Of a DNA stretch of 64,000 nt, positions 15,118-61,304 are shown piece after piece; positions within the stretch are counted from its first letter, which is position 1; each line of letters opens with the position of its first letter. The DNA lies in assembly GCA_036788295.1 (NCBI GenBank), contig DAIQNR010000003.1, positions 74,211 through 138,210 of the forward strand. The letters are read 5' to 3'. Made by a program: the position numbers and the translations under genes. The notes under the pieces were generated by a model. It had not been told where the DNA came from and did not search any database. It saw nothing but the letters and a program-made list of their open reading frames with translations. Origin of the DNA: Myxococcota bacterium (GTDB lineage: Bacteria; Myxococcota; Kuafuiibacteriia; Kuafuiibacteriales; Kuafuiibacteriaceae).

Positions 15118-15125
15118 CCTTCATC

Positions 15126-16043: not shown

Positions 16044-16168
16044 GGGTCCTCCCTGCGCCGGTGTAGGTGACCGCCGCGGATGTAGGACTAGGTACGAGGC
16101 GCACTCCATGCGGTCAATGGGAGCGACGCGGCGAGATCTTCGCCTGCGCCGAACCGAGACACCCGCGC

Positions 16169-28203: not shown

Positions 28204-28265
28204 CGTTCGAGGGGGACTTCTGGACGACAGCGGAACCAGCGTACGCTCCCCCCGTGCAGCGGTGG

Positions 28266-31143: not shown

Positions 31144-31342
31144 GGTCGCGTACCGGTCCAAGCTCACCGAGGTCCTCACGATTTTCGAGGTAAGCAGAAT
31201 CCGGGCCACCCCTGCGGACTCGGATCGGCGGGGGAGCGAGCGAGCGCCAAGGACACCGGCGTCGGTCGTGGGGTCGGGCGCCGAGACACCCGAGGTGGGG
31301 CGGCGAAGTGGTGGGTCCGAAGCCCACCTGAGGAACGAGGCG

Positions 31343-32968
31343 TTGACTGCCCGTCCCCTGCCGACCAGAACCCCGGCGGTGATTCCGCGGGAGAAGGACA
31401 ACGTCGTCTACATCGACTCCGACAGCGCCCCTCGCATCCTCCATTTCGGTGAGGATTTCCTGTACGAGCAGCTGCCGATCGGGACCCGCGTCATCTACCC
31501 GAACCCGCCGATCAAGGGGCTCGCGCAGCCCGACGCGGCCATTCGCTACGCGCTCAACCACCCCGAAGAGATGCCGCCGCTCTACGCGCTGCTCGAGCCG
31601 TCCATGAAGGTGACGATCGTCATGGACGACATCTCGCTGCCGCTGCCGGCGATGCGGCTGCCCGACGTCCGCCAGCGGGTGCTGACCATCCTGCTCGAGC
31701 AGCTCGCCGACCATGGGGTGGACGACGTGCGGCTGCTGGTCGCCAACGCGCTGCACCGCCGGATGACCGCCGGCGAGATGCGGCGCATGGTCGGCAGCAA
31801 GATCTTCGATCGCTTCTACCCGAAGCGGTTCATCAACCACGACGCCGAAGATCCGGACGCGATCGTAACCCTAGGGGAGACCGACATCGGCGAGGTGGTG
31901 AAGACCCACCGGTGGTGCGCCGAAGCCGACCTCACCATCTATGTGAACATCAACCTGGTCCCGATGGACGGGGGCCACAAGTCGATGGGCATCGGCACCA
32001 CCGACTACCAGGGGCTGAAGGCCCACCACAACCCGCGAACGATGCTCGAAGTGGATGGGTACATGGACCCGGCCAAATCCGAGCTCGCCGCTTCCGGCGA
32101 TCGCATCGGCCGGGTGCTCGATCAGCACCTGAAGGTGTTTCACATCGAGACCGCGCTCAACAACCGGATGTACGACCGGAGCATGAACTTCCTCGCCAAG
32201 AACGAGGATGACTTCTCCGAGCTCGACCGGCTCGCGTTCTTCGGTCTGCGCAAAGTGCTCGGCCGACTGCCCCGATCGGCGAAGCGCGAAGTGTTCCACC
32301 GGGTGCCGTCCCCGTATGAGATCATCGCGGTGCACGCGGGCAAGACCGAGCCGGTGCACCGAAAGATCCTCGAGAAGAACTACGAGCAATACTGCGTGCC
32401 GGTGAAGGGTCAGGCCGACGTGATGATCACCGGCATCCCGTTCATCAGCCCCTACAACGCCAACAGCATCCTGAACCCGCTGCTGGTGCAGGTCATGGCG
32501 CTCGGCTACATCTACAATTTGTACCGGGGCTCACCGCTGTTGCGGGATGGGGGCGTGCTCATCATCACCCATCCGCTGTTCGACCAGTTCGACCAGCGGT
32601 TTCATCCCAGCTACATCGAATTCTTCCACCGCTGCCTGACCGAGACACGGGACAGCTTCACGCTGCACCGGCGCTTCGAAAAGGAGTTCGCGACGAACCC
32701 GACGTACATCGAGATGTACCGCCGGGGGAACGCCTTTCACGGCGCCCATCCCTTCTACATGTGGTACTGGGGCGACTCGGGCCGGTCCAGGGTGGGAACG
32801 GTCATCTGCGTGGGAGCTGAAAACGAGCACGTCCCCCGGATCTTGGGCTGGGAGCGGGCCGCGACCCTGCACGACGCGATCGAGCGGGCCAAGGACCTCA
32901 CCCGCCCGAACCCCGAGATCTCGATGCTGCATCTGTCGCCGATCTTGATGACCGACATGAAGGGGTGA
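31343..32968 (+). CDS. LarA-like (lactate racemase / DUF2088) domain protein
   Basis: [38 protein letters not shown]…[14 protein letters not shown]… resembles the nickel-pincer LarA N-terminal region. I place the start at in-frame TTG 31343, which is preceded by AGGA at −8. No ATG exists between the divergent kinase start and the conserved region. Confidence 0.6.
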
Positions 32969-47030: not shown

Positions 47031-50000
47031 TCACCGCGCCGCGCCGACCACCGCTGCCGCCCCCGGGTGAAGGTCCACCGCCGAATCGGGCAGGCGCTCG
47101 GGGGGATCGCGCTCGAGCAGGCGGGTCGCAGCTTCCGTGGCCCCGAGGCTCGCGAGCAGCGCCGCTTGGTTTGCGACGGCGAAAGGGTGCCCGAAGCTCG
47201 CCGCCCGCCCGTAGGCAGCGTACGCGGCGGAAGCGTCGCCAAGGGCGAGCTCGGCCGCGCCGAGCAGGTTGTGCAGCCGGGCGTCCCGGTCGTCCACTTC
47301 GAGGCCCTGAAGGGCCATGAGCTTGGCCCGGCTGGCCTCGCCCTCGGCGAGCAGGTGCTCGACCATCGGACGGAGCGTGTCGAGGTCCCGCGGACGCCGG
47401 GCGATCCGAGCCTCGAGCTCCTTTCGGGCCGATTCACCGGTGGGGGCGGCCGCCGTGGGGCGCACCGCTGCCACCGCCTCCGTCGGGCCCTGGGCCAGGC
47501 AGCCCCGGGTCTCTGCGGTCAGCACCCCGAACGCGAGCGCGCGCTCGACGCAGGTCGAGAACAGCTCCTCGGCCCGGCCCTCGAGCCCTCCCACCTGCGC
47601 TTCGACCGCCGCGGTGTACTGAGCCAAGTCCTCTGCGGAGAGGCCCTCTGGCACCGGCGCCTCGGCGAGAAACCCGGCCATCTCCGCGTACGCCATCGCC
47701 ACCCGGTGGAGCGCGGCGACCGCCCAGATCCCCACACCGAGCCCGACCACCTCGACCATCGCCGCCTCGGTGCTCGCGAGCGCCTCGGCTTTGGCCGCCG
47801 CCGCTCGCTCGAGGTCGGGCAGGGCCGAGGCTTGGCGAAACCGCTCGAGGTGGGTCTCCCCGAGCCGAAACGCCGCTTCGGCCGCGTCGGCCCTCGCCTC
47901 CGGGGAGGCGGCCTTCGTCGTGGCCCGGACCGCAGCGGCGAAGTGGGAGGCCGCCGCGTCGAGCCGCCCGGCGTCCATTTCGGCGAGCCCGAGCACCAGG
48001 TTCGCTCGCTCCTTGGCGAGGCCCGCCCGGTCGAGGGCCTTCGCCACCGGCTCCGCCTCGCTCCACCGGGACGACACGCGCAGGCTCGCGAGCAGCGCCG
48101 AGCCGTATTCCGCCCGCTGCGCCGGGTCCTTGGACCGCTCGAACAGGGAAGAGAAGCCTTCCGCCGCTCGCGCGTGATCCCCGAGCAGCGCCCGCAGCCC
48201 CGCCGCTCGGGCTCGCTGCCGCCGGGCGGAGGCGTCGTCCGGAAACCGCGACTCGAACTCCTCGAGGTAGACCGCGGCCTGCTCGAAGGCCCCCACTTGG
48301 GTCGTGAACGCGGCCAGCGTGCCAAACACGTCTCCGAGGTAGGTCGATTCGGGGTAGGCGCCGATGAACTTGTTGCCGATGGAGAAGACCTGCTCGTAGT
48401 CCCGGGCCTCCTTGCTCTGAACGAACGCGGTGTACAGCGTCCGCTCCGCCACCGGCGAATCCCGGTTCTCCTCCCAATACTTGCGAAGGCTCGCCCCCGC
48501 GTCTTGCCCCGGTGCGTCCACCGACGCGGTGAGGATCACCTCGCCGATCTGCCGCTCCTCGGCCGCCTTCGCCGTGCTCTGCATTCGGCTCGCGAACGCC
48601 GGACCGCCGATCCTGAGCCCAGCGAGCTCCCGGGCCTTGTCGGCGAGCCCCACGTAGTCCCGCTCTTGGGCGAAGGCGTCGAGGATGAGATCGGCGACGG
48701 TCTCCGCCCGCGGATCCTTGGGGTATCGGGAGAGGAACTCATCGAAGACCCCTACGGCCCGGTCGAATTCGCCGCCTTCGAAGTAACTTCGGCCGATGTT
48801 GAGCTGCACCTCCGCGACTTTCGGGTGGTCCGGGTAGCGCTCGGTGAACGTCCGGCCGTTCTGGATGAGCCCGCGCTGCGCCCACAGCCGATCGAAGCGG
48901 GGCATCGTCGGTCCGCCCACTTCGAGCGCCTGACGGAACGCGGCGCAGGCGTCGATGAGCGCCGCTCGCTGCTCCTCGCCTTCGGACAGAAGGCGCGCGG
49001 TCTGCTCGAAGCGATCGCCGGCGTCGAGAAACCTCTTGGCCTCGAACAGGGTGTCGGCGAGGTTTTGGACCATCTGCTGCCGCTGGGGGCCGTTTGGGAA
49101 GCTCTCGAGGTAGCGCCGGTAGGCGCCGGCGACCCGGACCCCGAGCGCCGTGCTCTTCGCCTCTTTCGCTCGCTCCTGGGCTTTGGTGGCGAGATCCCGG
49201 GCCTGAAGCTCCACGTCGCGCTCCGCGGTCTGCCTGCTGTCCTTGGGGACCCGGGGGTCGAACCGATAGGCGTCGAGCGCGTCGAGCAAATCCCGGATGT
49301 CCTGGTCTACCCGGTCGAACCGTCCGCTCTTGACCGTCGCCTCGTACACGAGGCTCGTTCGCTCCAAGTTCTCGGACGGGTTGTGGGACAGCCGGGCCAG
49401 CTCCCGGAACACCCGCGCGGCGGCCGGGTAGTCTTGCTTCACCATGTACCTTCGACCGAGCTTGTCGAGCGCGAGCACGTAGAGGTTTCGCTCCGGGGCG
49501 AGCTTTCGAAAGTAGGGCAGGGCCTCCTTCGACGCCTTCACCTCGGTGAACACGAACACCAGGTCGAGCAGCGCCTCCCGCTTCACGTCGAGCCGGCGGT
49601 CGCCGCCGCCGCCGGGGGGACCCCAAGGGGACTTCACGGCCGCCTCGAAGTGCCGAAACGCGACCGGGAACTGGGTCTTGTTCATCGCGACCCATCCGAG
49701 CTTGAAGTGGGCGAGGTCGTGGGTTGGGGACACCGGGGCGCTGAGGACCTTTCGGTACCAGACCTCGGCTTCGTCGAGCTGGCTCTGGTCGAAATGGTAG
49801 TCGCCCAGGACCAGGTAGGCGTCGAGCACCAGCGGGCTCTTCGGGTGCTCGGCGGCGAGCTGCCGGTAGGTCGCGAGCATCTCTTCGTACGCGCCGAGCT
49901 CCCGCAACTCGTGGGCGAGGTAGAACCTCACCTTGTCGTTGTCGTCCCACTTCGCGAATTCGGACAGGATCCGGCGGTACATCTCGACCGCCTTCTCCTT

Positions 50001-50333
50001 CAGGAGCCGCGACGTGGGCGCGACCGCGGCGCCGCCCTCGCCGTCGCCCCGTGAGTCGTGAACGAGGTAGAACTCGTAGCGGGACTGCTCGGCGTACAGC
50101 TCCGCCAGCCGCAGATAGATGTCGGGGAGGTAGGGAGCGCCCCTAGACCTCGCGATCAGGGTCTCGGTGACTTCGATGGCCCGGGCGACCTTGCCGATGT
50201 CCCGGCGGAGCTTCTCCTCGAACAGCTTTCGCTCGTCCGCCGCCGAGCGGGGCCCGCCCGGGCCGGGCACCTGCGCCGCCGCGACCGACGAGCCAAGGAG
50301 CGACAGGAGGATCAGGCCTCTTCGTCGAAGCAT
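47031..50333 (-). CDS. Large secreted TPR-repeat protein (GltD/AgmU–NfsD-like size class)
   Basis: Signal peptide MLRRRGLILLSLLGSSVAAAQ, with SD GGGAGAG before the ATG at 50333. The 1100-aa product has >15 TPR-like helical pairs. The track ORF's additional 220 N-terminal codons are Arg-rich and start-overlap the upstream gene. Confidence 0.75.
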   Translation of the reverse strand: MLRRRGLILLSLLGSSVAAAQVPGPGGPRSAADERKLFEEKLRRDIGKVARAIEVTETLIARSRGAPYLPDIYLRLAELYAEQSRYEFYLVHDSRGDGEGGAAVAPTSRLLKEKAVEMYRRILSEFAKWDDNDKVRFYLAHELRELGAYEEMLATYRQLAAEHPKSPLVLDAYLVLGDYHFDQSQLDEAEVWYRKVLSAPVSPTHDLAHFKLGWVAMNKTQFPVAFRHFEAAVKSPWGPPGGGGDRRLDVKREALLDLVFVFTEVKASKEALPYFRKLAPERNLYVLALDKLGRRYMVKQDYPAAARVFRELARLSHNPSENLERTSLVYEATVKSGRFDRVDQDIRDLLDALDAYRFDPRVPKDSRQTAERDVELQARDLATKAQERAKEAKSTALGVRVAGAYRRYLESFPNGPQRQQMVQNLADTLFEAKRFLDAGDRFEQTARLLSEGEEQRAALIDACAAFRQALEVGGPTMPRFDRLWAQRGLIQNGRTFTERYPDHPKVAEVQLNIGRSYFEGGEFDRAVGVFDEFLSRYPKDPRAETVADLILDAFAQERDYVGLADKARELAGLRIGGPAFASRMQSTAKAAEERQIGEVILTASVDAPGQDAGASLRKYWEENRDSPVAERTLYTAFVQSKEARDYEQVFSIGNKFIGAYPESTYLGDVFGTLAAFTTQVGAFEQAAVYLEEFESRFPDDASARRQRARAAGLRALLGDHARAAEGFSSLFERSKDPAQRAEYGSALLASLRVSSRWSEAEPVAKALDRAGLAKERANLVLGLAEMDAGRLDAAASHFAAAVRATTKAASPEARADAAEAAFRLGETHLERFRQASALPDLERAAAAKAEALASTEAAMVEVVGLGVGIWAVAALHRVAMAYAEMAGFLAEAPVPEGLSAEDLAQYTAAVEAQVGGLEGRAEELFSTCVERALAFGVLTAETRGCLAQGPTEAVAAVRPTAAAPTGESARKELEARIARRPRDLDTLRPMVEHLLAEGEASRAKLMALQGLEVDDRDARLHNLLGAAELALGDASAAYAAYGRAASFGHPFAVANQAALLASLGATEAATRLLERDPPERLPDSAVDLHPGAAAVVGAAR

Positions 50334-51787
50334 CGGTTCTCTCCCAGAAAATCGAAACGCGAGAGCTCGTCGTTCCAGAACTCTCCCACGAAAGGATAGA
50401 TGGCGTCGGGTCCGGCCAGCGGGATGTCCTCGATGCGGCTCTGGCCCCGCCGGGCCCTGCGCTCGTCGAGCCGCCGATAGATGGCGAGCCCGACCTCGTA
50501 GTCGAGCAGGTACATTTGCTCCTCGAAGGCGACCAGCTCCTCGGCCCGAGCCCGGACCGCTTCGGTGAGCCGCGCGTCGATGATGCGGTCGGTCCTCTGG
50601 ATCGCGAGCTCGTGGATCTCCCGCAGGGCCTCGTCGAGCCCGGTCTCCCTGAAGTCCCCCCCGAACTCGTCCACCCGCTGGGCTTCGGCCTCGAGCGCGC
50701 GGCGAAACGCGAAGAGCCGATCGAGCCGGGGATCTTCCGCCCTCGCCGCCCGCCTCAAGACCGCGTCTTCCCGGAGGTCGTCTCGCCGCCGGATGTGCTC
50801 GAGCGTCGAACCGAAGTGGAGGCGAAAGCGCCGAATCTCCCGCTTCGCCGGGATGTAGTGGCACAGGCGCTGGTAGATGAGCGCCCGAAGCAGGAACTTC
50901 TCCGGGGCGACGAGATCTCGGTAGCTCGGGGCTTCGAGCGCGTAGAGCAGGCCCATCGCGGTCGGAAAGTTGGTCTGCCGGTACGCGGTCCACGCCCGCT
51001 CGAGCAGCAGCTGCCCTTCGGCGGCGGTCAGCTCGGGGACCTCGACCGCGCGGTACATCGCGTCGGCCGCGGGGTATTGCTTCTTTTCGTAGAGGACGCG
51101 GGCGAGCGCGAGCCGGGCTTGGTTTCGGGTCTCGGTCGGCGCCGCCGGGTGGGCGAGCGCGGCCCGAAAGCCCCGGACCGCTTCGGCTTCCTTCCCTCGC
51201 CCGAGGTCGTCGACCGCGGCCGCGTAGGCGGCCTGCGCCGCGTGCGGGCTCTTCCTGGGGATCGCGGCAAACAACCGATCCGCCCAGGTCCGACGGCCGT
51301 CGCGAAGGTCGGCGAGACCTTGAAAAAAGCGCACGAACCCAGCGACGTCGGGCGGCAGGTACCCAAAATCGCCGTCCACGAGCAGCCGAAGGTCGAGCAG
51401 CGACTCGTCGTGCGGGCCCTGCATCAGGCGCTCGATCTCGACGAGCGCTTCGGGGAGGATCTCGGGCTGCCTACCTACGAACGCGACCTCGAACAGCTGC
51501 TCGGCCCCCGCTTGGGTGAATCCGAGCCTGAAGAGCGAGACCCCGAGAAAGTAGCGAGCCCAGGTCCGGTTCTCGGCGGTGTCGGGGTTGGTAGCGACAT
51601 AATCGTACATTCGGGCCGCGGCCCGGCGGTGGTCGTCGCCATAGAAGGCCCCGAGGCCGTCCCGAAAGACATCCGGCGGGGCGGCGCGGCGCCGCGACGG
51701 AGCGCTGACCGCGGTCGATTCGGTCTTTTCGGCCGCCTCCTCGGCCGGAGCGAAGACGAGCACGGCCAAAACGGCAAGAGCGGTCAT
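50312..51787 (-). CDS. Secreted TPR-like protein (GltC/NfsC-like size class)
   Basis: Signal peptide MTALAVLAVLVFAPAEEAA, then helical-repeat content (…AAYAAAVDDLGRGKEAEAVRGFRAALAHP…). Its 3' end overlaps the downstream TPR gene start by 22 nt. Confidence 0.65.
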   Translation of the reverse strand: MTALAVLAVLVFAPAEEAAEKTESTAVSAPSRRRAAPPDVFRDGLGAFYGDDHRRAAARMYDYVATNPDTAENRTWARYFLGVSLFRLGFTQAGAEQLFEVAFVGRQPEILPEALVEIERLMQGPHDESLLDLRLLVDGDFGYLPPDVAGFVRFFQGLADLRDGRRTWADRLFAAIPRKSPHAAQAAYAAAVDDLGRGKEAEAVRGFRAALAHPAAPTETRNQARLALARVLYEKKQYPAADAMYRAVEVPELTAAEGQLLLERAWTAYRQTNFPTAMGLLYALEAPSYRDLVAPEKFLLRALIYQRLCHYIPAKREIRRFRLHFGSTLEHIRRRDDLREDAVLRRAARAEDPRLDRLFAFRRALEAEAQRVDEFGGDFRETGLDEALREIHELAIQRTDRIIDARLTEAVRARAEELVAFEEQMYLLDYEVGLAIYRRLDERRARRGQSRIEDIPLAGPDAIYPFVGEFWNDELSRFDFLGENRCFDEEA

Positions 51788-52509
51788 CGGGGCTCCTCCT
51801 CATCCACGTCGGGGCTGGGCGCCGTCCCCGGGAACAGGGCGTCGAGGACCAAATCCGGGTCCTCGGCCGGGGTCGTGCCCGCCGCTCGCTCGCCGCGGGA
51901 CCCGAAATGAAACCCGAGGGATAGGTTGATCTGCAGCAAGGTCTCGAGCGGGAGCAGCTCATCGAAGGCGACCGTGCCCCGAAAGTCGAGCCTGGCCGAC
52001 ACGCGAGAGCCCAGGTGGAGGCGGACTCCAGGGCCTCCCGATACCTGGTAGCGAAAGCCATCGCTGAAGTTCGCCACCCCGAACCCGAGGTGAAGGTGGG
52101 TGGACAGGTTCAGCACCGCCCGGTCGAACAGGGCTACCTTCCCGTAGAGGGGCGTGAACAGGAGTCCCGTGCTCGCCAAGTATTCGACCTGCGGCTCGAC
52201 GGTGGGCGCGACCCCGAACCGGGTCTCGAGCGACCCGGTGAGGCCGCTGTCGAGCGCCGCGGCGTAGCGAAAGTCCACCAGCTCGAGCGCGACGATCTCC
52301 GATAGATGCAAGGTGTAGCTGCCGCCGAGCGACAGGCCCGTGTACAGCGCGCTCGCCGGCAGCACCCCAACCCCCACGTCGAGCTCGTGGATGAGGCGGT
52401 GGGGTCGGTCCTCCCTGGCGACCACGCGCCCGCCCATTCGCCGCTCCTGCTCGCTCGCGAGCGCCTCGGTGGCGAAGAAGAAGACAAGCAGCGCGATGCT
52501 GGGCCTCAT
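51784..52509 (-). CDS. Putative outer-membrane β-barrel protein (GltA/B–NfsA/B-like), paralog of 52506-53195
   Basis: Signal peptide MRPSIALLVFFFATEALA, then alternating hydrophobic β-strand pattern (…YTGLSLGGSYTLHLS…, …LQINLSLGFHFGS). Its start overlaps the stop of the upstream paralog, and its stop overlaps the downstream start (ATGA). The track ORF extension to 52947 is Arg-rich. Confidence 0.55.
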   Translation of the reverse strand: MRPSIALLVFFFATEALASEQERRMGGRVVAREDRPHRLIHELDVGVGVLPASALYTGLSLGGSYTLHLSEIVALELVDFRYAAALDSGLTGSLETRFGVAPTVEPQVEYLASTGLLFTPLYGKVALFDRAVLNLSTHLHLGFGVANFSDGFRYQVSGGPGVRLHLGSRVSARLDFRGTVAFDELLPLETLLQINLSLGFHFGSRGERAAGTTPAEDPDLVLDALFPGTAPSPDVDEEEPR

Positions 52510-53195
52510 GGGACGTCTCCGAACCCAAACGACGCCGATAAGGTGAACAGACCGACCGTCTCGACGCCCTCCGGCTCCCCTTCCCGGAGGGCGCGGCGCA
52601 GGGCGGCGAAGAGCCGCCCGTCGAAGCGAGCGCTCAGCCACGACGACGCGTAGATGCGAAAGCCGAGCCCACCGCCGAGCGCCGGCCGCAAGTCCTCGAG
52701 CATCTCGTCGAAGGTGGGGCGGTCGCCGAAGAAGAGCCCGGCGTAGGCGCCGAGGACCACCGCGCCGTGGACGGTGTCTCGGTTGAACAGCACCTGCTTG
52801 CCGTACATGGGGCTCAGCTCGAGCCCGGTGGACAACAGCAGCCGGGGAGCAGAGAACTCGTCCGGCCGCCGGGCGAAGGTGCCGACCAGCTCCTCGTACA
52901 AGGAGGTCGGGTCGAGCAGGGCCCCGGTGACTTCGAGCACCTCCCACGCGAGGTGGGGGCTGAGGTGGTAGGTGTAGGCGAGACCGGCGGTGAAGCCCTT
53001 TTGGAACGGATCGAGCGGCATCGTGCCCACGGCGAGCCGCAGCTCGTGCCTCGTCCCATACTTTCGGGCTTGCACCGCCCCGGAGACCGCCGGCTCGGCG
53101 GCCGGGGCCGAGCCTGCGACCAGGCAGAGCAAGGCGGCGATGGACCCCGTTTTCAGGGGGACAGGTGGACGTCGCGGGACCGATTCGCGCGGCAC
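52506..53195 (-). CDS. Putative outer-membrane β-barrel protein (GltA/B–NfsA/B-like), paralog of 51784-52509
   Basis: Signal peptide …KTGSIAALLCLVAGSAPAAEPA (GTG start at 53195). The same strand pattern and similar length to the neighbour (…LAYTYHLSPHLAWEVLEVTGA…, …FTLSASFGFGDVP). Confidence 0.55.
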   Translation of the reverse strand: MPRESVPRRPPVPLKTGSIAALLCLVAGSAPAAEPAVSGAVQARKYGTRHELRLAVGTMPLDPFQKGFTAGLAYTYHLSPHLAWEVLEVTGALLDPTSLYEELVGTFARRPDEFSAPRLLLSTGLELSPMYGKQVLFNRDTVHGAVVLGAYAGLFFGDRPTFDEMLEDLRPALGGGLGFRIYASSWLSARFDGRLFAALRRALREGEPEGVETVGLFTLSASFGFGDVP

Positions 53196-53209
53196 GGCGG
53201 GACCCTACG

Positions 53210-55567
53210 TCAGTACGAGGTCGGGGCGAAGTTCCAGGGATAAGAGATCACCACATCTCCACCCTTTGGGGACGGGAAGCGCCAGTTCTTCAGCTTGTCC
53301 ATCACGCACCGGGCCACCGCCGCGTTTTGGAGCGTCGAGTGCTTCTGCTTGATGTCCCCCGCCCGTCCGTTTTGGCGGATGGTCCACTCGATGACGAGCT
53401 TGCCCTGGAGGCCAGGGCTCGACATGAGCGCCCGCTCGAAGCAGCTGACGACCTCGTTCGCGTGTTGGTCGATCACCTTCGCCACCTCTTCCCGAGATAT
53501 GTTCCCCTGCGCGGTCACCCGGCTCGGCACCGCCCGGTCCACCTTGCCCCGCACGGCGCCCCCGCTCGTCTTTCCGATCCGCGCGAACCCTGGCCCATCG
53601 CGCAGCAGGTCGGCGCTCCCGCGGGTGAGCGGCTTGCCTCCGCCCCCACCCCCGAGCCTCACGTCCGACGAAGGGGCCTTGCCGATGAGCGCGCCCACCC
53701 GAAAGCTCGATCCGCCGGGGGTCGAGACCGCGTCGAGGCTCGAGGCGGCGCTGACCATGCTCGGCGCGCCGGGGGCGGCGTTGGCCAGCTTGCCGAGCGC
53801 GCCGAGCACCCCCGCCTTCTTCACCTCGGGGGCGGGCGCTCCTTTGGGCGCGGCGGCCGGGGGAGCAGGGCTCTTTCGTTCGATTCGGGCCGGCTTCTTC
53901 TCCGCTTTGGCCACGGGAGGCGGTGCCTTGGCCGGCTCGGGCGCGGGCGGCTCTGGCTCCGGCTCCGGCTCCGGCTCCGGCAGGCTCACTTCCACCGGGC
54001 GGACCTCGTCGACCGCGGCCTCGGCCCAAATCTCCCTCGGGGCTCCGGAGAAGCTGGTGGCCGGGGTGGTGAGGCCGAGTACGAGGCCGAGCGCCAAGTG
54101 GACGAGCACCGCCGAGCCGAGCGCGCGCGGCACCGGTCCGTCGAGCCGCTTTCCGGCCGGAGGCGGAACGGGGACCGGCGGAGGGCTCACGAAGCGCAGG
54201 TGGCACCCCAGGTCGCCGATGCGGAGGTCGAGCGACTGGCCTTGCCGCAAGCGGACCGCGTACGTGTCACCCTTCGTGCTGACCGCGTGGCCCGGGATCT
54301 TCAGGTTGTCGAGGGGGACCTTTCGCCCCTCGTCGAGCAGCACGCCGGCCGCGTCGCTCGGGAAGCGGACCTCGGCGAGCCCCGGAGCGAGGAGCCGAGC
54401 CACCCGCAGGGGGCGACCGATCCCCAGGAGGTGGGCCGAGCGGCGAGGCTTTTCGAGCAGATCGATCCGGCGCAGCTCGTCCTTCCTCGACGCGATGACC
54501 TCGAGCGCGTGGGGCCGCTCCGCCGGAGGCGCCGAGCGGATGAGCTCGAGCAGCGAAAAGCCGGGCCGCTCGAGCGCCTCCGCCTCGTCCTCGTCGAGGC
54601 CTTCTTCCTCCTCGGCCGCCAGCTGAGGGTCGAGTTCATGCGCGGGCTCCCGTTTTTCCTGCCGGCTCTCTGCCGGTGCGGGCTCGGAGAACGGGTCCGA
54701 GATGGGGCGCCGCCGCAAGGGCGCCTGCTCCGTTCGCTCGGAGGCGAACGCCTCCGAGAACGGCATCGCCGCGTACGGATCGGGCGCCAAGTCCCCGAGC
54801 GCGATCGCCACCGTCGCCGGTTCCTCGTCGAGCGGCTCGTCCGGCGTCCCGGCGGCGCCAAAAGCGGAGGCCAGGGCCTCGTCCACCGAGCCGTAGGCCT
54901 CGGGAAGCGCGAACCCATCGTCAGCGGGGGTCGCGAGGTCCGCTTGCTCCTCGAGCACGTCCTCGCCGATCACCGCGATCCGGTCGGACACCGCCTCGTC
55001 GAGCCCATCGAAGATGTCGTCCGACCAGGCCCGCTCGCGAACGACATCGGTGGGGATGCGCCGCTCGCCCGGGGTCCGCGGAGCGGAGTCCATCAGCAGG
55101 TCCGCGGTCGGCGCCGGTCGCGCCGGCCGAACCACGGGGCCCGGTTCGGGTGCGCTCTGCCGCTTCTTGCCCGGGCCCGCCGAGGGGAGCGCGGCGGGGA
55201 CAGCCGACGGGCTCGGGACGGCGGAGGGAATGGGGAGCGCCGAGGGTCGGGCCCCCACCGGCTTCGGCTTCACCAGCTTGAGCTTCAGCACATGGCCGCC
55301 GACGCCGACTTCGTCTCGGGGGCCGATGAAGCCATGCTGAACCCGGGCCCCGTTGACGCGGACGCCTCCCGCGGTGCCGAGGTCCACGACCCGAACCTGG
55401 TCGTCCTCCCTGGATAGGATCGCGTGCGCGTCGTCTACGGCGCCGTCGTCGAGGCGAAGGTCGGCCTCCTCGCCGCTGCCCACGACGAGCTCCGGCTCGG
55501 TGAAGACCTCCGAGCCGACATACGCGCCGTCGCGGAAGACGAAAACGTGGAGAACCGGGACCGCCAC
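53210..55567 (-). CDS. FHA-domain protein of the AgmX/PglI (GltJ/GltG/NfsG) type: FHA – second FHA-like – TM – Pro/Glu-rich periplasmic linker – AgmX/PglI C-terminal domain
   Basis: N-terminal FHA (VFVFRDGAYVGSEVFTEPELVVGSGEEADLRLDDGAVDDAHAILSREDDQVRVVDLGTAGGVRVNG). A TM helix AVLVHLALGLVLGL is followed by EPEPEPEPEPP, KAPPPVAKAEKKP. The conserved C-terminal block GNISREEVAKVIDQHANEVVSCFERAL…GKLVIEWTIRQNGRAGDIKQKHSTLQNAAVARCVMDKLKNWRFP is characteristic of myxobacterial gliding/sporulation AgmX/PglI proteins. Confidence 0.8.
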   Translation of the reverse strand: MAVPVLHVFVFRDGAYVGSEVFTEPELVVGSGEEADLRLDDGAVDDAHAILSREDDQVRVVDLGTAGGVRVNGARVQHGFIGPRDEVGVGGHVLKLKLVKPKPVGARPSALPIPSAVPSPSAVPAALPSAGPGKKRQSAPEPGPVVRPARPAPTADLLMDSAPRTPGERRIPTDVVRERAWSDDIFDGLDEAVSDRIAVIGEDVLEEQADLATPADDGFALPEAYGSVDEALASAFGAAGTPDEPLDEEPATVAIALGDLAPDPYAAMPFSEAFASERTEQAPLRRRPISDPFSEPAPAESRQEKREPAHELDPQLAAEEEEGLDEDEAEALERPGFSLLELIRSAPPAERPHALEVIASRKDELRRIDLLEKPRRSAHLLGIGRPLRVARLLAPGLAEVRFPSDAAGVLLDEGRKVPLDNLKIPGHAVSTKGDTYAVRLRQGQSLDLRIGDLGCHLRFVSPPPVPVPPPAGKRLDGPVPRALGSAVLVHLALGLVLGLTTPATSFSGAPREIWAEAAVDEVRPVEVSLPEPEPEPEPEPPAPEPAKAPPPVAKAEKKPARIERKSPAPPAAAPKGAPAPEVKKAGVLGALGKLANAAPGAPSMVSAASSLDAVSTPGGSSFRVGALIGKAPSSDVRLGGGGGGKPLTRGSADLLRDGPGFARIGKTSGGAVRGKVDRAVPSRVTAQGNISREEVAKVIDQHANEVVSCFERALMSSPGLQGKLVIEWTIRQNGRAGDIKQKHSTLQNAAVARCVMDKLKNWRFPSPKGGDVVISYPWNFAPTSY
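53946..53982 (-). repeat. (GGCTCC)n hexanucleotide microsatellite encoding the (Glu-Pro)n linker of the AgmX-like protein
   Basis: ggctctggctccggctccggctccggctccgg on the + strand. It translates on the minus strand to EPEPEPEPEPP in the periplasmic linker. Confidence 0.8.
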
Positions 55568-55575
55568 TTGGGACC

Positions 55576-55947
55576 TCAGGGCTCGAACACGGTGCGCAAG
55601 GTGCGCTCCCGAAAGCTCTTGCGCCGCTCCACCATGCTGCTGAGGCCGGCCGCCTTTCGGGCGAAGAGGACCACCGCGCCGGTCTGGTTGCGCTGCCCTT
55701 GGACGAGCCGGTCGTCGAAGTCGATCCGGGTCGGTCCGCGCCCGGTGGGCTCGACCGGGACTGGCGCCGGCGCCTCAGCAGCGGGCGGCGGCGGAGGAGT
55801 GGGTCGCTTCGCCGGGGCCCGGCGCCGCGGCGGCGTCTTGCCGATCGCGGGCGAGAGGCCGAGCCCGGGGTCGAACGCGCCGAGCACCAGCCCGAAGGCG
55901 AGCACCCCGGCCAGTCGAGCGCCGACGCGCCCCCATCCGTTCGCCAT
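55576..55947 (-). CDS. Small membrane-anchored Pro-rich protein (TonB-like topology), first gene of the operon
   Basis: MANGWGRVGARLAGVLAFGLVLGAF (TM) – PPRRRAPAKRPTPPPPPAAEAPAPVPVEP – C-terminal ~45 aa. Its stop lies 9 nt upstream of the FHA gene start. Confidence 0.35.
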   Translation of the reverse strand: MANGWGRVGARLAGVLAFGLVLGAFDPGLGLSPAIGKTPPRRRAPAKRPTPPPPPAAEAPAPVPVEPTGRGPTRIDFDDRLVQGQRNQTGAVVLFARKAAGLSSMVERRKSFRERTLRTVFEP

Positions 55948-56205
55948 GGAACTGGCCTAGCGAGCCGCGCTGGCAAAGTCAAACCGATGACCGGCTAAGT
56001 CTTGGAAATGACCAGGACTCTGCTTCAATTTCGCCCGGGGTGCCCCGCCCCCCAGGAGGGGGTGCAGGCCCCGGGGCGCTCGCCCCCGGGCCCCTCGCGA
56101 ACCCAACCGCGGTCGTTTTGGGGGCCCGAGCCCCCGATGGGATGGGGAAGAGGGGACGATCGATGAACCGTTGGAGTTGGCAAGGTTCTAGCATTGTGAC
56201 CTTGC
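55948..56205. promoter_or_regulatory. Divergent intergenic region between the Glt/Nfs-like operon (−) and the TSP3/vWA lipoprotein operon (+)
   Basis: A 258-bp non-coding gap separates two back-to-back operon starts. Candidate −35/−10-like elements are present (ttgacc… / tggaaatgacc…), but no confident σ70 or σ54 match can be asserted by eye. Confidence 0.3.
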
Positions 56206-57561
56206 ATGAAACGACTGCCCCTGCGTTCGCCTCCCCTTGCCTTGACCGGTATCGCTGCAGCTCTGCTCTTTGCCGCGGCCCCGGCTCAGGCCCAAACCGG
56301 CTCCGGCGACGACGGAGGCGAGTGCTCGGGAGGGCTGTGCGGCACCCCCCTTCAATCCGGGGGCGGCGGCTGCGGCTGCGGCGGCGGGTCGATTCTCATC
56401 AACAACACCGACCGCGGCGACACCTACCAGTATGGGGACGACTACGACTCCGACGGGTTCGAAGACGACTTCGACAACTGCCCGTTCGTCTACAACCCGG
56501 AGCAGCTCGACGGAGACGGGGACGGGGTGGGCGACGCCTGTGACCTGTGCCCCGTCGTCGCCGACCCCCTCCAGATCGACACCGACAGCGACGGCCTCGG
56601 GGACGCGTGCGACCCCGACATGGACGGCGATGGCGTCCTGAACGCGGTGGACGTCTGCCCGCTGGTCGCCGACCCGCTGCAGCTCGACACCGACCTCGAC
56701 GGGCTCGGCAACGCCTGCGATCCGGATGACGACGGGGACGGCGTCCTCGACGGGCGAGACAACTGCCCGCTGTTCTACAACCCGGATCAGGTGATCCCGG
56801 CCGACGCCGAGGGGTTGTGCTACCTCGACTCCGACCGGGACGGCATCGACGACAGCGTCGACAACTGCTTCTCCGCGTTCAACCCCGACCAGGCCGACAT
56901 CGACGGGGACGGGATCGGCGACGCCTGCGACGGGGACATGGACGGCGACGGTCTCACGAACCTCCGCGACAACTGCCCACGGGTCGCAAATCCCGACCAA
57001 CTCGACACCGACCGGGATGGGATCGGCGACGCGTGCGACGACCGCCTGTGCTTCGTGGTGTGGCAGGCTGGCGCCGAGGACCTGCGGGACCCGAACCATT
57101 GCCTCGACCCCGAGCTGACCTTCACCGTGCTGTCGGTGCCCCAGGACATCGCCGAGGTGGGACAGAGCCGTCGCCTCCACATCTTCTCGAACCGAGAGAA
57201 CCAGCCGATGCGCTACGTATGGACCGTCGTCGGTCGGCCCGCCGGTTCGAGCGCCGAAGTGCAGCACCCCCGGGGCTCCGTGAACCAGTCCGACTACTTC
57301 GAATACCGCTACCAGCGGGACCGGGTGGCGAGCTTCACCCCGGACGTGCCCGGGGACTACCAGCTGCAGCTGTCGGCGGAGCTCGTGTTCGACGACCCGA
57401 TGTTCCCGGAGGTGACGTCGAGCCGGACCACCTTCAACCTCACCGCCACCGGTGAGCCGCAAAGCGGCTGCGCGGCTGCCGGCGGTCCGGTCCGGCCCCC
57501 GCTCGAGCTGCTGCTCGCCGCCGCGGGCGCCGTCCTGCTCCGGCGCCGCCGCCGGGCCTGA
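56206..57561 (+). CDS. Secreted thrombospondin-type-3 (TSP3) Ca-binding repeat protein with MYXO-CTERM tail
   Basis: Signal peptide [29 protein letters not shown], then ≥8 DxDxDGxxDxCD repeats ([33 protein letters not shown]…, [12 protein letters not shown]…). The C-terminus is [32 protein letters not shown]. Confidence 0.75.
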
Positions 57562-57666
57562 ACCAGGGCGCGGGCTTCGCGCGCCCCGATGAATCGAGGC
57601 TTGGGGCCGGTGAAGACCGGTGACCCGGGCCTTCTTTTCGGGGACCATGGTCCCCGGTCCCAAGCC

Positions 57667-59472
57667 ATGCGAAACCTCATCTTCGCCCTGCTGCTTCTCG
57701 CCGGCTGCACCCCCGAGACCCTTCGAGCCATCGACCAGGTGGAGGTTCGCGCGGTGGACGACAAGCTCGTCATCGAGGGCGAGGTGTGCACCGAGCCTCC
57801 GGAGCCGACCGACTTCCCGGTGAAGATCCTGTTCGTCATCGACGGGTCGGGGAGCATGCAGTTCGTCGATATCCCGTCCCGCCGGGCGCTCGCGGTGGAG
57901 GAGGTGATGCTCCGGCTCCGGGCGAACCCGAGCGTGTCGTTCGCGGTCGTCCGGTTCAACGAGTCGAGCGCGGTGCTCACCCGCCCGGGGACCGACATCA
58001 CCACGAACGAGCCGTTTTCGACCGACGTGTCCGGCGCATTCACCCGGGACCCGGCGGTGCTGGGCCAAGCGGTGCAGGAGCTGCGGGTGGCCGACTCCGT
58101 CACCGACTACCAGGGGGCCCTGTCCACCGCGTTTCTCATCCTCTCCCAAGACATGCTGGGCTCGCCCCGGGAGGAGCTCGCCCGGACGAAGTACGTGGTG
58201 GTGTTCTTGTCCGACGGGGACCCGTTTCCGAGTTGCTGCAGCCGCCGCAGCGAGGAGGTCGGGCTCTGCAACCGGGACACGAATCTGTTCTTCTGCGAGA
58301 ACCCAGACGCAATCCGCCAAAACCCTACCCAGCTCCCTTTTCACGAGGCGGGCGCCGACTACAACCAGCCGTACCAAATCTATGGCGCGGTCCGGGACAT
58401 CATGGCCCTCGAGGAGACGTTCGGGGCGGGCGAGATCCGGCTCCACACCGCGTTTCTGTTCGACCCCAACCTCGTCGAATCGCTCGACCCGGTCACCAAC
58501 TGCTACACGATCGCGGGCGTCAACTTCGTCTGCAGGGACGAGGCGATCGAGCTGCTCGGCAACATCGCCCGGATCGGGCAGGGCATCTTTCGCGACTTCT
58601 CCGCCGCCGAAGAGATCGACTTTCTCGGCTTCGACCTCTCGAGCGTTCGACGGGAGCGGGGGCTTCGAAACCTCTTCGTCGCCCACCGCTCGGCGACGCT
58701 CGACGACCGGTTCGCTCCGGAGCCGGACAGCGACGGCGACGGCCTGCCCGACCGGGTAGAGTTCGAGATCGGCTCGTCACGGACCGACCCCGACACCGAC
58801 GGCGACGGCTTCTCCGACCTGCTCGAGTTCCGCTTCACCCGGGGCGGGCTCGACCCGCTGGTGCCAAACCCTGGCTGCACGGGGGAAGACGACCGCCGTG
58901 ACGTGGACGGGGACGGCCTGCTCGCCTGCGAGGAGCGGTTCCTCGGCACCTCGGATCGGTTCTTCGACAGCGACGCCGACGGCCTGCCCGACGGGCTCGA
59001 GCTGCGGGTCCGGCTCGACCCCGCGGCCCACGACGCGCTGCTCGACGCCGACCTCGACGGGGTCCGAAACCGAGACGAGATCCGGGCCGGCACCGCCGTT
59101 CACCGGGACGAGGGCCAGGCCCGATCCAGCGTCGCCTACCGCAGCCGGACCGAAGACCGCGGCGTCGGCCCAAACGGTGGCCGCTGCTATGGGTTCGAGG
59201 TCAAGAACCTGCGCCTGACCACTCCGCTCGCCCGTCCCGGGGTCACGGGCAGCTTCGGTCGAAACGAGTTCCTCGTGTACGTCTCCGAAGCGTCCGAGGG
59301 CGACCCCGACGACCTCGCCCGGTTCAAGATCGGCTGCGCCTGCGCCCGGTACGTCGCGCCCGACTTCAAGGACCCGCCGCTCGGTCGGGTGGAGCTTTCG
59401 CCCGAAGACTTCGTTCGGCCGGAGGAGTTCGACCCCGCCATCCACTGCCGGGGCTGCGGAGACGCCCAGTGA
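57667..59472 (+). CDS. von Willebrand factor A (vWA) domain lipoprotein with C-terminal TSP3 repeats, paralog 1
   Basis: MRNLIFALLLLAGCTPE has a lipobox. vWA MIDAS context: KILFVIDGSGSM, DYQGAL, VVVFLSDGDP. It is Cys-rich, then carries DSDGDGLPD, DTDGDGFSD, DVDGDGLLACEE, DSDADGLPD repeats. The track ORF start at 57589 precedes the signal peptide. Confidence 0.75.
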   Translation: MRNLIFALLLLAGCTPETLRAIDQVEVRAVDDKLVIEGEVCTEPPEPTDFPVKILFVIDGSGSMQFVDIPSRRALAVEEVMLRLRANPSVSFAVVRFNESSAVLTRPGTDITTNEPFSTDVSGAFTRDPAVLGQAVQELRVADSVTDYQGALSTAFLILSQDMLGSPREELARTKYVVVFLSDGDPFPSCCSRRSEEVGLCNRDTNLFFCENPDAIRQNPTQLPFHEAGADYNQPYQIYGAVRDIMALEETFGAGEIRLHTAFLFDPNLVESLDPVTNCYTIAGVNFVCRDEAIELLGNIARIGQGIFRDFSAAEEIDFLGFDLSSVRRERGLRNLFVAHRSATLDDRFAPEPDSDGDGLPDRVEFEIGSSRTDPDTDGDGFSDLLEFRFTRGGLDPLVPNPGCTGEDDRRDVDGDGLLACEERFLGTSDRFFDSDADGLPDGLELRVRLDPAAHDALLDADLDGVRNRDEIRAGTAVHRDEGQARSSVAYRSRTEDRGVGPNGGRCYGFEVKNLRLTTPLARPGVTGSFGRNEFLVYVSEASEGDPDDLARFKIGCACARYVAPDFKDPPLGRVELSPEDFVRPEEFDPAIHCRGCGDAQ

Positions 59473-61304
59473 ACCAGAACCGGGGCCGGTGGGCGGCGCT
59501 CGTCGCGGGCGCGCTCTCCGCTGGGGGGTGCACCGATTTTGGGCTCTTCGTCGCCGCCACCGACGGGCCGGGGCCGTTCGACGACACGCTCGCCATCGAG
59601 ACCCGGTTTTGCACCGAGGATCCGGCGACGCTCGAGTTCCCGGTCAAGATCCTCTTCGTGGTCGATACTTCGCAGTCGATGAACGTCACCGATCCCACCG
59701 GAGGACGGCTCTCGGCGGTGCAGGAGGTCGTGGACAACTTCCTAGACGACCCGGGGACGAGCTTCGCGATCATCCAGTTCTCGGGGCAGACCAACGTGCT
59801 CACCCAGGGGCCGGACGGGGAGGACGGCTTCACCCGCGACCGGGAGGCGCTCGAGACCGCCATCGTCCGGCTCGGGGTGGCCGAGCAGCCGACGGACTAC
59901 GAGGGGGCGATCGCGAACGTGAACCGGGTCCTGAGCCGGGACATGGCCAACGCGAGCGAGCAGGCGCTGTCGCGCTCCCGGTACATCGTGGTCTTCTTGT
60001 CCGACGGGCTGCCCGACCCGGTTCGGCCGCCGACCAACACCCGCAGCTCCATCCTCCGGAGGGTCCGTGAGATCTCGGACCTGCAGCGGATCTATCGGCC
60101 AAGGGAGATTCGATTTCACACCGCGCTGCTGCTCGGGGCCCTGGGGACCGGATTTCGATGCGCCGACGCCGGTCTCGAGGGGGGCGTGGGGCGGTGCTCG
60201 GCCTTGAACACCGCTCCGCTGTGCGAAGCGGATCGCCGCTGCACGTGGATCTCGGTGGAGCAGGAGGCGACGAGCTTGCTCGAGGGCATGGCCGCGGCTG
60301 GCTCGGGCACGTTTCGGAGCTTCCCGAACGGCGAGTCGATCAACTTCCTTCGCATCGACTTCACGTCGATTCGCCGCATCTTCGCTCTCAAGAGCCTGGT
60401 GGTGAGCAACTTGAACGCCCGTCCTCGGTTCGAGTTTCCGCTCGGCATCGGAGCTGGTTTCGGGCGCGCGGTGGTGGACAGCGACGGCGACGGCCTGTCC
60501 GACGAGCGCGAGCTCGAGCTCGGGACATCGCTGACGTCCACCGACACCGACGACGATGGGTTTTCGGACCTGCTCGAGGTCCGCCTGTCCGCCTCCGGCT
60601 TCGACCCGCTCGACCCGAGCGACGCCGACTGCACGCCGGGGCTCGACCGCCTCGACACCGACGGAGACGGCCTGCTCGACTGCGAGGAGCGGTTCTTCGG
60701 CACGAATCGGAACCGCCCCGACGGCGACGCCGACGGCTTGCCCGACGTCGTCGAGCTGATGGGCGGCTCGAACCCGGTCGCCAACGACCTGCTCGCCGAC
60801 AACGACTTCGACGGGGCCCGAAACGGGGCCGAGGTGAGGGCCCACTCCGACCCGAATCGGCCCGACTCGGCCGAGCGGTCCCAGATCAGCTACCGGTACA
60901 GCATCGTCCGCCGCAGCCCCGAAGACCTCGCCCCGACCGATGCTCGGCAAGCGGTCCTGCGGGCGGGGCGGGAGTGCTACGAGGCCCGCGTCGAGAACGT
61001 GACCCTGGCCCCGACTCTGGATGGGAAGAACCGGATCATGATCTATGTGACGCAGGCCCCGTTCGACGACCCGGAGGACTTCGGTGAGCTTCGGGTGGCC
61101 TGCGTCGAGCCGTCCTTCTTTCCCCCGGACACCAGGCTGCCGCCGCTGTCCACGGTGTTCGTGCCCGAGTCCGCGTACGTGCGCCCGGAGGCGTTTCGGC
61201 GGTCGCTTCACTGCACCACCGGCGAGGTCCCGCCCCCCCGGGACGAGCGCTGCGTGGGGCCGATCGAATCTCTCGACCGGTCCTGCTTCGAGGAGGGCCC
61301 ATGA
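59469..61304 (+). CDS. vWA domain lipoprotein with C-terminal TSP3 repeats, paralog 2
   Basis: The GTG start overlaps the upstream stop (GTGA). The lipobox is LSAGGCTD. vWA motifs: KILFVVDTSQSM, DYEGAI, IVVFLSDGLP. TSP3 repeats: DSDGDGLSD, DTDDDGFSD, DTDGDGLLDCEE, DGDADGLPD. Confidence 0.75.
   Translation: MNQNRGRWAALVAGALSAGGCTDFGLFVAATDGPGPFDDTLAIETRFCTEDPATLEFPVKILFVVDTSQSMNVTDPTGGRLSAVQEVVDNFLDDPGTSFAIIQFSGQTNVLTQGPDGEDGFTRDREALETAIVRLGVAEQPTDYEGAIANVNRVLSRDMANASEQALSRSRYIVVFLSDGLPDPVRPPTNTRSSILRRVREISDLQRIYRPREIRFHTALLLGALGTGFRCADAGLEGGVGRCSALNTAPLCEADRRCTWISVEQEATSLLEGMAAAGSGTFRSFPNGESINFLRIDFTSIRRIFALKSLVVSNLNARPRFEFPLGIGAGFGRAVVDSDGDGLSDERELELGTSLTSTDTDDDGFSDLLEVRLSASGFDPLDPSDADCTPGLDRLDTDGDGLLDCEERFFGTNRNRPDGDADGLPDVVELMGGSNPVANDLLADNDFDGARNGAEVRAHSDPNRPDSAERSQISYRYSIVRRSPEDLAPTDARQAVLRAGRECYEARVENVTLAPTLDGKNRIMIYVTQAPFDDPEDFGELRVACVEPSFFPPDTRLPPLSTVFVPESAYVRPEAFRRSLHCTTGEVPPPRDERCVGPIESLDRSCFEEGP

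Follow-up and report, generated by a model that had tools for sequence, protein, structure and literature searches.

A G5-type Glt-like gene cluster next to Mts adhesin genes in an uncultured lineage of Myxococcota

Besides the clusters G1 and G2 of the Agl-Glt gliding machinery, Myxococcus xanthus has additional Glt clusters, G3 (the nfs genes), G4, and G5, and a motor paralog, M2 (Luciano et al. 2011, PLoS Genet, PMC3169522). The functions of G4, G5, and M2 were unknown in that study, and insertions in the gltD homologs MXAN_1922 and MXAN_1327 left motility unaffected. Here, we analyze six genes, g1 to g6, on the minus strand of a 64,000-nucleotide stretch of DNA (the window) from an uncultured Myxococcota bacterium (GCA_036788295.1, contig DAIQNR010000003.1, positions 74,211 to 138,210). 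These genes very probably encode a Glt/Nfs-like envelope complex of the G5 type, with the order and content of MXAN_1327-1331 of M. xanthus. They stand next to an operon of Mts adhesin genes, and this neighborhood recurs in other genomes. The best explanation of these data, which we regard as probable, is a Glt-like scaffold of the G5 type, devoid of its own motor, that acts together with the Mts surface adhesins.

A cluster with the gene order of G5

The comparison with G5 is one of gene order, protein sizes, and annotation, taken from Table S3 of Luciano 2011. At this level the two clusters correspond gene by gene (Table 1). The order GltF-GltG-barrel(s)-GltC-GltD is identical, and in both clusters the GltG-like protein carries an FHA domain. 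Neither has GltE, GltH, GltI, GltJ, GltK, or a motor. The GltD homology of MXAN_1327, the counterpart of g6, is the assignment of the same table. The clusters differ in that M. xanthus lists one barrel gene where the window has two paralogous ones, and the host of the window belongs to a distant, uncultured lineage of Myxococcota. G4 and nfs are unlike the window in both content and order, whereas G5 has the same order. The original prediction had proposed an additional paralogous complex of unknown function. This description stands, except that the complex had already been catalogued as G5 (MXAN_1327-1331; Luciano 2011). It had also proposed that gene content and order mirror those of the Glt and Nfs complexes; the Glt/Nfs-like content is borne out, but the order F-G-B-C-D is that of G5 and not that of nfsA-H. 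Systems of this kind are already known, and the exact architecture found here was listed in 2011; the window adds an occurrence in an uncultured lineage.

The Nfs complex deserves separate consideration because it is a complex of the same general kind. It is a Glt paralog encoded at a single locus, one operon with its motor encoded elsewhere (PMC3169522, PMC3858216), it includes barrels and GltC-, GltD-, GltF-, and GltG-like proteins, and NfsG binds AglR. Yet we find it highly unlikely that the window encodes an Nfs ortholog compacting the spore-coat polysaccharide in sporulation. The nfs genes run A-B-C-D-E-F-G-H, including NfsE and NfsH, whereas the window has F-G-A/B-C-D with no homolog of E or H. 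In Table S3 of Luciano 2011, the annotation "FHA domain" is found on MXAN_1330 and Hoch_5627, while among the Glt-like rows shown the GltG homologs lack it. Finally, Nfs is tied to the Exo polysaccharide and not to adhesin genes, whereas the neighbors of the window cluster are adhesin genes and no exo or spore-coat genes were detected nearby.

The six genes of the window form a compact operon. The proposal of six tightly packed genes between 47031 and 55947 is confirmed by their coordinates and by their coding signal. In all six open reading frames the GC content is 0.85-0.89 at third and 0.46-0.60 at second codon positions, in a window of ~70% G+C, and the same genes are called in the public annotation of GCA_964504175.1, an assembly 99.92% identical to the window. 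From g1 to g6, the junctions are gaps of 8 and 14 nt followed by overlaps of 4, 4, and 22 nt. This agrees with the expected overlaps of 4-22 nt, but not with the expectation that no gap exceeds 12 nt, because that between g2 and g3 is of 14 nt. A terminator scan revealed no terminator-like sites within the operon beyond chance level, and the matches of a sigma-70 promoter scan were also at chance level.

A scan of metagenome contigs with a profile of the g5 family provided 80 loci to assess how conserved this organization is. The order g1-g2-barrel-g5-g6 is colinear in all 39 loci where the five were detected, and a homolog of g6 follows g5 in 54 loci out of 54. Such an operon structure greatly exceeds what chance would produce. 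The number of barrel genes varies: related loci have two in ~14 of 59 cases and one in ~45 of 59. Most relatives have an extra canonical-TPR gene after g6 (L034:18512-21163, L084:15969-17885, and most of L090-L160), which is lacking in the window. In L084, this gene is preceded by two unannotated genes encoding proteins of 187 and 213 aa. In the place of the seventh TPR gene of the relatives, the window has a gene for an RPE65-family oxygenase, 63 nt downstream of g6. We left it out of the system because it is not conserved after g6 in relatives.

The missing seventh TPR gene could suggest that a Glt-like cluster was duplicated and that the copy seen here is decaying or no longer works, as could the loss of the canonical phosphothreonine-binding residues in the FHA domain of g2 (see below). 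We give this idea almost no credence. All six open reading frames are intact, with a strong codon bias, gene order is conserved in every one of the 39 loci mentioned above, and orthologs at 35-60% identity keep their full length. The degenerate FHA residues are common to the whole family and are therefore a family trait rather than a sign of decay.

Linkage to the Mts adhesin genes

A plus-strand mts operon, absent from the original prediction, diverges from g1 across an intergenic region of 258 nt (55948-56205). Its first gene encodes an MtsC equivalog (NF047638, 542.6 bits for a cut-off of 350) with a MYXO-CTERM tag (TIGR03901, 20.2 for a cut-off of 20). The two following genes encode MtsD-related VWA/TSP3 proteins, so that the neighbor of g1 resembles the Mts cohesion locus as described by NF047638 and NF047639. 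The resemblance is incomplete. With 261.8 and 162.3 bits for an NF047639 cut-off of 800, the MtsD-like proteins are homologs (VWA plus TSP3) but not equivalogs, and both also have a weak match to CglD. The fourth gene of the operon encodes a predicted lipoprotein with a sub-threshold match to the PPC (pre-peptidase C-terminal) family, restricted to residues 82-154 (E 1e-4, 23.6 bits, cut-off 25.9); in most of the related loci, too, such a gene comes after those for the MtsD-like proteins. Lipoboxes and signal peptides, here and below, were read off the N-terminal sequences and a hydropathy scan.

The window also differs from many genomes in lacking two genes, encoding ~450-540 and ~155 aa, that precede mtsC there. 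These two conserved genes have no Pfam or NCBIfam match (L033:6208-7767 and L034:1488-1988; homologs are found, e.g., at L042:2731-5011 and L044:7382-9192) and may be further mts genes. In divergent loci resembling the window (L004 and L006-L008) the larger one follows g6. Homologs of neither were found anywhere in the window.

The divergent intergenic region includes a sigma-54-type -24/-12 element just upstream of mtsC (Table 1). The pattern TGGCAC-N5-yyGCT is also found in L002, L003, L006, L008, L009, and L010, at a fixed distance of 13-14 nt before the mtsC ATG. A generic search for sigma-54 patterns across the whole window yields matches at chance level, and what is informative is the position-specific comparison across loci. 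The fixed offset from the start codon implies an mtsC transcript that would be sigma-54-dependent and nearly leaderless. In other genomes, a gene with FHA, sigma-54-activator, and HTH_8 domains is directly upstream of mtsC (L033:8386-9753); in the window, mtsC has no sigma-54-activator gene beside it.

Is the proximity of the two gene sets a peculiarity of the window? In M. xanthus, MtsC is MXAN_1334 (PMC12475490), three locus tags from the G5 cluster MXAN_1327-1331. We scanned genomes with an MtsC profile and retrieved the 10 kb on each side of the best 80 of 142 loci, all from Myxococcota-type metagenome-assembled genomes. Genes of the G5 type were present in these flanks at 30 of those 80 loci; among the 33 loci whose flanks were complete, 16 had them. 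Of the 30 linked loci, 27 fall into three arrangements. In 12, the two sets are divergent, as in the window. In 7, a second copy of mtsC is followed ~2.5 kb further, on the same strand, by the Glt-like genes; L033 and L034, which are one contiguous region, have the full mts operon plus this second copy. In the remaining 8, the mts operon runs straight into the Glt-like genes, which share its strand, and in L044 and L072 the GltF-like gene begins 3-4 nt past the last VWA gene. The converse analysis, centered on G5-type loci of the metagenomes, gave similar frequencies: Mts genes are nearby in 18 of the 38 loci with at least 6 kb of upstream sequence and in 12 of the 25 with at least 9 kb. By a rough estimate, which considers one unlinked cluster falling within 10 kb in a genome of ~10 Mb, one would expect ~0.3% per locus by chance. 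Given a linkage of ~48%, the association between G5-type and Mts genes is strong. It survives rearrangement and is not universal. The genes found between the two sets in loci with the second mtsC copy (cytochrome b and c, GMC oxidoreductase, and methyltransferase) were judged to be metabolic passengers.

Table 1. Genes and promoter element of the Glt-like cluster and the divergent mts operon, with the corresponding G5 genes of M. xanthus.
Feature	Position	Strand	Evidence	G5 counterpart (Luciano 2011 Table S3)
g6, TPR protein, 1100 aa, with the size and position of a GltD/AgmU/NfsD-like protein	47031..50333	-	TPR families	MXAN_1327, 1089 aa, GltD-like
g5, GltC/NfsC-like TPR protein, 491 aa	50312..51787	-	NF033756	MXAN_1328, 538 aa, GltC-like
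g4, OmpA-like 8-stranded outer membrane barrel (GltA/GltB-like), 241 aa	51784..52509	-	TIGR04565; AlphaFold2 model; Foldseek	MXAN_1329, 246 aa, GltB-like (for g4 and g3)
g3, small outer membrane beta-barrel (GltA/GltB-like), 229 aa	52506..53195	-	TIGR04565; paralogy with g4	MXAN_1329 (for g4 and g3)
g2, GltG-like inner membrane protein, 785 aa, with FHA	53210..55567	-	Pfam FHA, Yop-YscD_cpl; NF033768; AlphaFold2 model	MXAN_1330, 749 aa, FHA, GltG-like
g1, GltF/CglF-like small protein, 123 aa	55576..55947	-	GC at third codon positions 0.89; NF033764 CglF match	MXAN_1331, 162 aa, GltF-like
Sigma-54-type -24/-12 element, TGGCAAGGTTCTAGCA	56176..56191	+	14 nt upstream of the mtsC ATG, in the divergent intergenic region	
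MtsC, secreted, seven thrombospondin-type-3 Ca-binding repeats, MYXO-CTERM tag	56206..57561	+	NF047638; TIGR03901; Pfam TSP_3	
MtsD-like protein 1, predicted lipoprotein (LLAGC), VWA (MIDAS DGSGS), bacterial TSP3 repeats	57589..59472	+	NF047639; VWA_2; TSP3_bac	
MtsD-like protein 2, predicted lipoprotein (SAGGC), VWA (MIDAS DTSQS), TSP3 repeats	59469..61304	+	NF047639; VWA_2; TSP3_bac	
Predicted lipoprotein (LVAC), fourth conserved gene of the mts operon	61301..63247	+	sub-threshold PF04151 PPC	

Proteins of the complex and the missing motor

The GltG-like protein g2 has the most elaborate architecture. At its N terminus, matches to Pfam FHA and Yop-YscD_cpl reveal an FHA fold that is similar to those of GarA, OdhI, and FhaA (Foldseek TM-scores of 0.8-0.88). 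It is followed by a disordered acidic linker of ~250 residues and by a confident all-beta domain in the AlphaFold2 model (residues 354-460). Then come a single transmembrane helix at ~478-500, seen in both the hydropathy scan and the model, a periplasmic spacer made of a (PE)5 repeat and a K/P/A-rich stretch, and a C-terminal alpha/beta domain modeled with a pLDDT of ~90. This last domain (690-782) is of the AgmX/PglI type, with 104.7 bits in NF033768 for a cut-off of 40, and resembles weakly the C-terminal domain of TonB (E 0.018). The best equivalog for the protein is GltG (135 bits, E 2.7e-39), for which the cut-off is 650. The predicted FHA domain, helix, EP repeat, and conserved C-terminal block were all recovered, as was the relation of the latter to AgmX/PglI, but the second FHA-like region was not: residues 345-465 have no detectable profile-profile similarity to the first FHA domain (hhalign probability of 2.7%), and the Foldseek output has hits to FHA domains only and gives no residue ranges for them. 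An FHA/AgmX-C protein of Kofleriaceae (P0014) was considered as a relative of the system and dropped, since its genomic context is unrelated.

The FHA domain may not bind phosphopeptides. Relative to GarA, its phosphothreonine-binding residues are changed from GR to GS, from SRRH to DDAH, and from NG to GG, and such changes are family-wide, which suggests a domain that is probably phospho-independent, like the SctD-type FHA domains of type III secretion systems. Ser/Thr protein kinase genes are typical of Myxococcota. There are three in the window, at 21629-22990 (+), 23009-23986 (+), and 30025-31401 (-), which could be of interest given the FHA domain of g2, although its phosphothreonine-binding residues are degenerate.

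The transmembrane helix of close g2 homologs has a SxxxH signature like that of TonB and TolA, with a Ser four residues before a conserved His in most of them. In the window the His is conserved and an Ala takes the place of the Ser. This resemblance is suggestive only. A subgroup of GltG-like proteins (P0010-P0012 and L084) lacks the conserved His, and in L034 (JAKLGA010000001.1) a cluster at 11453-18408 has GltF-, barrel-, GltC-, and GltD-like genes while a GltG-like gene was not detected. The family is therefore heterogeneous in the part presumed to couple to the motor. The rod also varies among close relatives: across ~19.8 kb, the differences between the window and GCA_964504175.1 amount to nine substitutions and a single indel of 6 nt, which adds one PE unit to the (PE)n spacer of g2 at around residues 531-540 (L001:6215-8578) and is thus a repeat-length polymorphism in the TonB-like rod.

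The proposal that g3 and g4 are small paralogous proteins with the features of beta-barrels fared well. They share 32% identity (E 2e-17), and in the myxobacterial outer membrane beta-barrel model TIGR04565 (cut-off 60) g4 scores 65.2 bits and g3 just misses the cut-off with 57.8 (E 1.2e-15). The hydrophobic N terminus of g3 was taken as a signal peptide from the hydropathy scan. The AlphaFold2 model of g4 is a barrel of 8 long strands (pLDDT 78.8), and all the 50 PDB neighbors listed by Foldseek are outer membrane beta-barrels or designed transmembrane barrels, led by the transmembrane domain of OmpA (1bxw, E 3.8e-5) together with OprF-N, OmpX, Ail, and NspA. GltA and GltB have been described as paralogous OmpA-like outer membrane barrels that stabilize each other and bind the periplasmic GltC (PMC4488436). 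The pair in the window matches GltA and GltB as paralogous barrels of this kind, and it is in this sense that we call it GltA/GltB-like.

Most features anticipated for the remaining proteins were recovered too. As a GltC/NfsC-like protein, g5 matches the GltC equivalog NF033756 (E 3.7e-21), at 75.5 bits below a cut-off of 450, and its family is conserved end to end. The proposal that both g5 and g6 are secreted proteins made of TPR or helical repeats agrees with their TPR matches and with their hydrophobic N termini, which resemble signal peptides. In g6, the matches are to several TPR families and include YbgF/CpoB-like and BamD-like hits. Its family of full-length proteins of ~1050-1150 aa has 324 representatives at E<=1e-30. 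The C terminus of g6 has a weak match to GltE (E 7e-6), and the cluster has no separate gene for a GltE/NfsE-like TPR lipoprotein. Finally, g1 was rightly described as a small protein with a transmembrane segment and Pro-rich sequence. It has an N-terminal hydrophobic signal or anchor, a basic Pro-rich spacer, and a conserved C-terminal module of ~55 aa with the motif RGPTRIDFDDRL.QGQ...SMV.RR.SFR, which is kept across arrangement classes. CglF, which is the same protein as GltF (PMC4488436), is matched by g1 (NF033764, E 0.0024, 17.8 bits) and by 9 of 12 g1 orthologs (best E 1.7e-7), all below the equivalog cut-off of 90.

Where is the motor? The absence of an AglRQS/TolQR-type motor in the window, noted in the original prediction, was confirmed for the window proteins scanned. 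AglR binds GltG and NfsG, while the M2 homolog MXAN_3003 does not (PMC3858216). On these grounds we would expect a motor encoded elsewhere, AglRQS or the orphan M2.

The composition of the complex also allows a comparison with the Agl-Glt gliding machinery of M. xanthus (G1/G2 with CglB and CglD). The two share a TonB-like inner membrane protein with an AgmX/PglI C-terminal domain (GltG), a pair of paralogous OmpA-like barrels binding a periplasmic TPR protein (GltA/B and GltC), a small GltF/CglF protein, a giant TPR protein, and the association with surface lipoproteins that have VWA/MIDAS domains and TSP3 repeats. Could the window then encode a true gliding machine, orthologous to G1/G2 and driving adventurous motility? 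The shared GltF-, GltG-, GltA/B-, and GltC-like proteins, along with a TPR protein of the size of GltD, would fit such a role, but we regard it as very improbable. The scores of g1, g2, and g5 are all far below the Glt cut-offs, the cluster lacks AglZ, and no genes for GltE, GltH, GltI, GltJ, GltK, or AglRQS are found in the window. Furthermore, the architecture is that of G5, and disruption of the GltD homolog of G5 left gliding intact (Luciano 2011, PMC3169522).

More distant parallels exist with TonB-ExbBD and TolA-TolQR-Pal. They include an inner membrane anchor of one helix with a conserved His, a periplasmic rod resembling (EP)n/(KP)n, a TonB_C-like C-terminal domain, and the YbgF/CpoB-like TPR units of g6. 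These systems differ from the window in that g2 has a large cytoplasmic N-terminal part containing FHA, no TonB-dependent receptor or Pal is present in the window, and no ExbBD or TolQR genes are nearby.

Some other genes of the window are worth recording. One of them (11188-15117, +) encodes a protein of 1309 aa that has both an RNB (RNase II/R) domain and, at its C terminus, an endonuclease/exonuclease/phosphatase domain. Three more are unrelated to the operon: a protein with a PNGase F C-terminal-like domain (28026-30005, +), a homolog of calpain-family cysteine proteases (35520-37211, +), and a DUF3141 protein (796 bits; 37658-39922, -).

A possible role in cell-cell cohesion

What could a G5-type complex do next to adhesin genes? 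In M. xanthus, the outer membrane module GltA/B/H/K/C recruits CglB, a VWA adhesin, and shields it. CglD, a TSP/COMP and VWA lipoprotein, stabilizes adhesion, and its gene reportedly never clusters with glt genes (bioRxiv 10.1101/2023.10.19.562135). In contrast, the CglD-related MtsD-like genes adjoin the Glt-like cluster of the window. Because these genes and mtsC cluster with Glt-like genes, we propose the G5-type complex as a platform for the Mts adhesins. A functional coupling of the two in cell-cell cohesion would be, in our judgment, slightly favored by the data. A more specific proposal is tentative, and we hold it with some more doubt than belief: the G5-type cluster and the mts operon may form one trans-envelope machine, with a TolQR/AglRQS-like motor in trans, whose task in cell-cell cohesion would be to display integrin/thrombospondin-like adhesins or to put them under tension.

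The G5-type complex as platform for the Mts adhesins could work as follows. A single helix would hold the GltG-like g2 in the inner membrane, with the degenerate FHA and the second beta domain in the cytoplasm. The protein would cross the periplasm by its TonB-like (PE)n/KP-rich rod and end in the TonB_C-like AgmX/PglI domain, thus spanning from the cytoplasm to the outer membrane. Judging from their Glt/Nfs homologs and their hydrophobic N termini, g1, g5, and g6 would be the periplasmic scaffold. The OmpA-like pair g3 and g4 would dock g5, as GltA and GltB dock GltC, and make with it the outer membrane module. Energy would be provided in trans by a proton channel of the TolQR/AglRQS type, with its genes beyond the window. 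The complex could then hold, expose, or mechanically couple MtsC and the VWA/MIDAS lipoproteins at the cell surface for cell-cell cohesion, by analogy with the Glt outer membrane module that loads and unmasks CglB. Whereas the genes, their families and domains, the barrel fold, the synteny, and the recurrent linkage are observed, we infer the localization of the proteins, the assembly of the complex, its coupling to a motor, and its functional tie to Mts.

Several observations weigh against a G5-type complex that works with Mts. Mts genes are missing from the 10 kb around about half of the G5-type loci, including L084 and a large soil subclade, and about half of the MtsC loci have no Glt-like gene within that distance. 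We found no paper describing or experimentally showing a link between G5 and Mts, and no description of the Mts locus as part of a Glt-like system in the searchable literature. With an insertion in MXAN_1327, colony expansion by gliding and by twitching was wild-type (Luciano 2011, PMC3169522). The mts genes reportedly affect social motility and cohesion, according to Zhang et al. in 2007. The surface localization of MYXO-CTERM proteins depends on the secretin of the type II secretion system (PMC12475490), and the export of MtsC itself would therefore not need the G5-type complex. No MotA_ExbB or ExbD family proteins were found among the window proteins scanned. The likeness to Glt is itself distant, with equivalog scores far under the cut-offs (135 of 650 for GltG, 75.5 of 450 for GltC, and 17.8 of 90 for CglF), and profile searches with GltD models matched neither g6 nor 9 spread members of its family.

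Some of these observations would be expected if the G5-type complex were unrelated to Mts. It could handle a surface polysaccharide, in the way that Agl-Nfs handles that of the spore coat, or maintain envelope integrity in a Tol-Pal-like manner, and the adjacency would reflect no more than inherited synteny or shared regulation. The loci without Mts genes, such as L084, fit this idea, as does the lack of a twitching defect in the MXAN_1327 insertion. Nfs and Glt are both linked to polysaccharides (PMC3858216), and the YbgF/CpoB-like TPR units of g6 are typical of Tol-Pal partners. We consider it unlikely nonetheless, if worth keeping in mind. A linkage of ~48% was obtained from both directions, against the rough chance estimate given above. 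It occurs in at least three gene arrangements, including one where 3-4 nt join the last mts gene to the GltF-like gene, which makes passive synteny hard to sustain. Moreover, genes for polysaccharide synthesis or export were not detected next to the operon in the window. We thus retain the G5-type scaffold working with Mts adhesins as the better account.

Among the Glt paralogs of M. xanthus, functions are at hand for gliding and spore-coat assembly alone, and G4 and G5 have been orphans since 2011. The G5 type now appears as an operon that is widespread and strictly colinear among uncultured Myxococcota and that, in about half of the cases, stands beside the Mts genes or in one array with them. 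This linkage replaces an unknown cargo with a concrete hypothesis, open to genetic tests in M. xanthus. Should it prove wrong, the window would simply have one more copy of a catalogued paralog. If it is true, it would provide a function for a paralog unexplained since 2011 and a mechanism for the Mts cohesion system. Cell-cell cohesion would then follow the same motor-scaffold-adhesin logic as bacterial focal adhesions, and the G5-Mts system would be a "cell-cell focal adhesion," a counterpart to the Glt-CglB/CglD focal adhesion to the substrate and possibly related to it by evolution.

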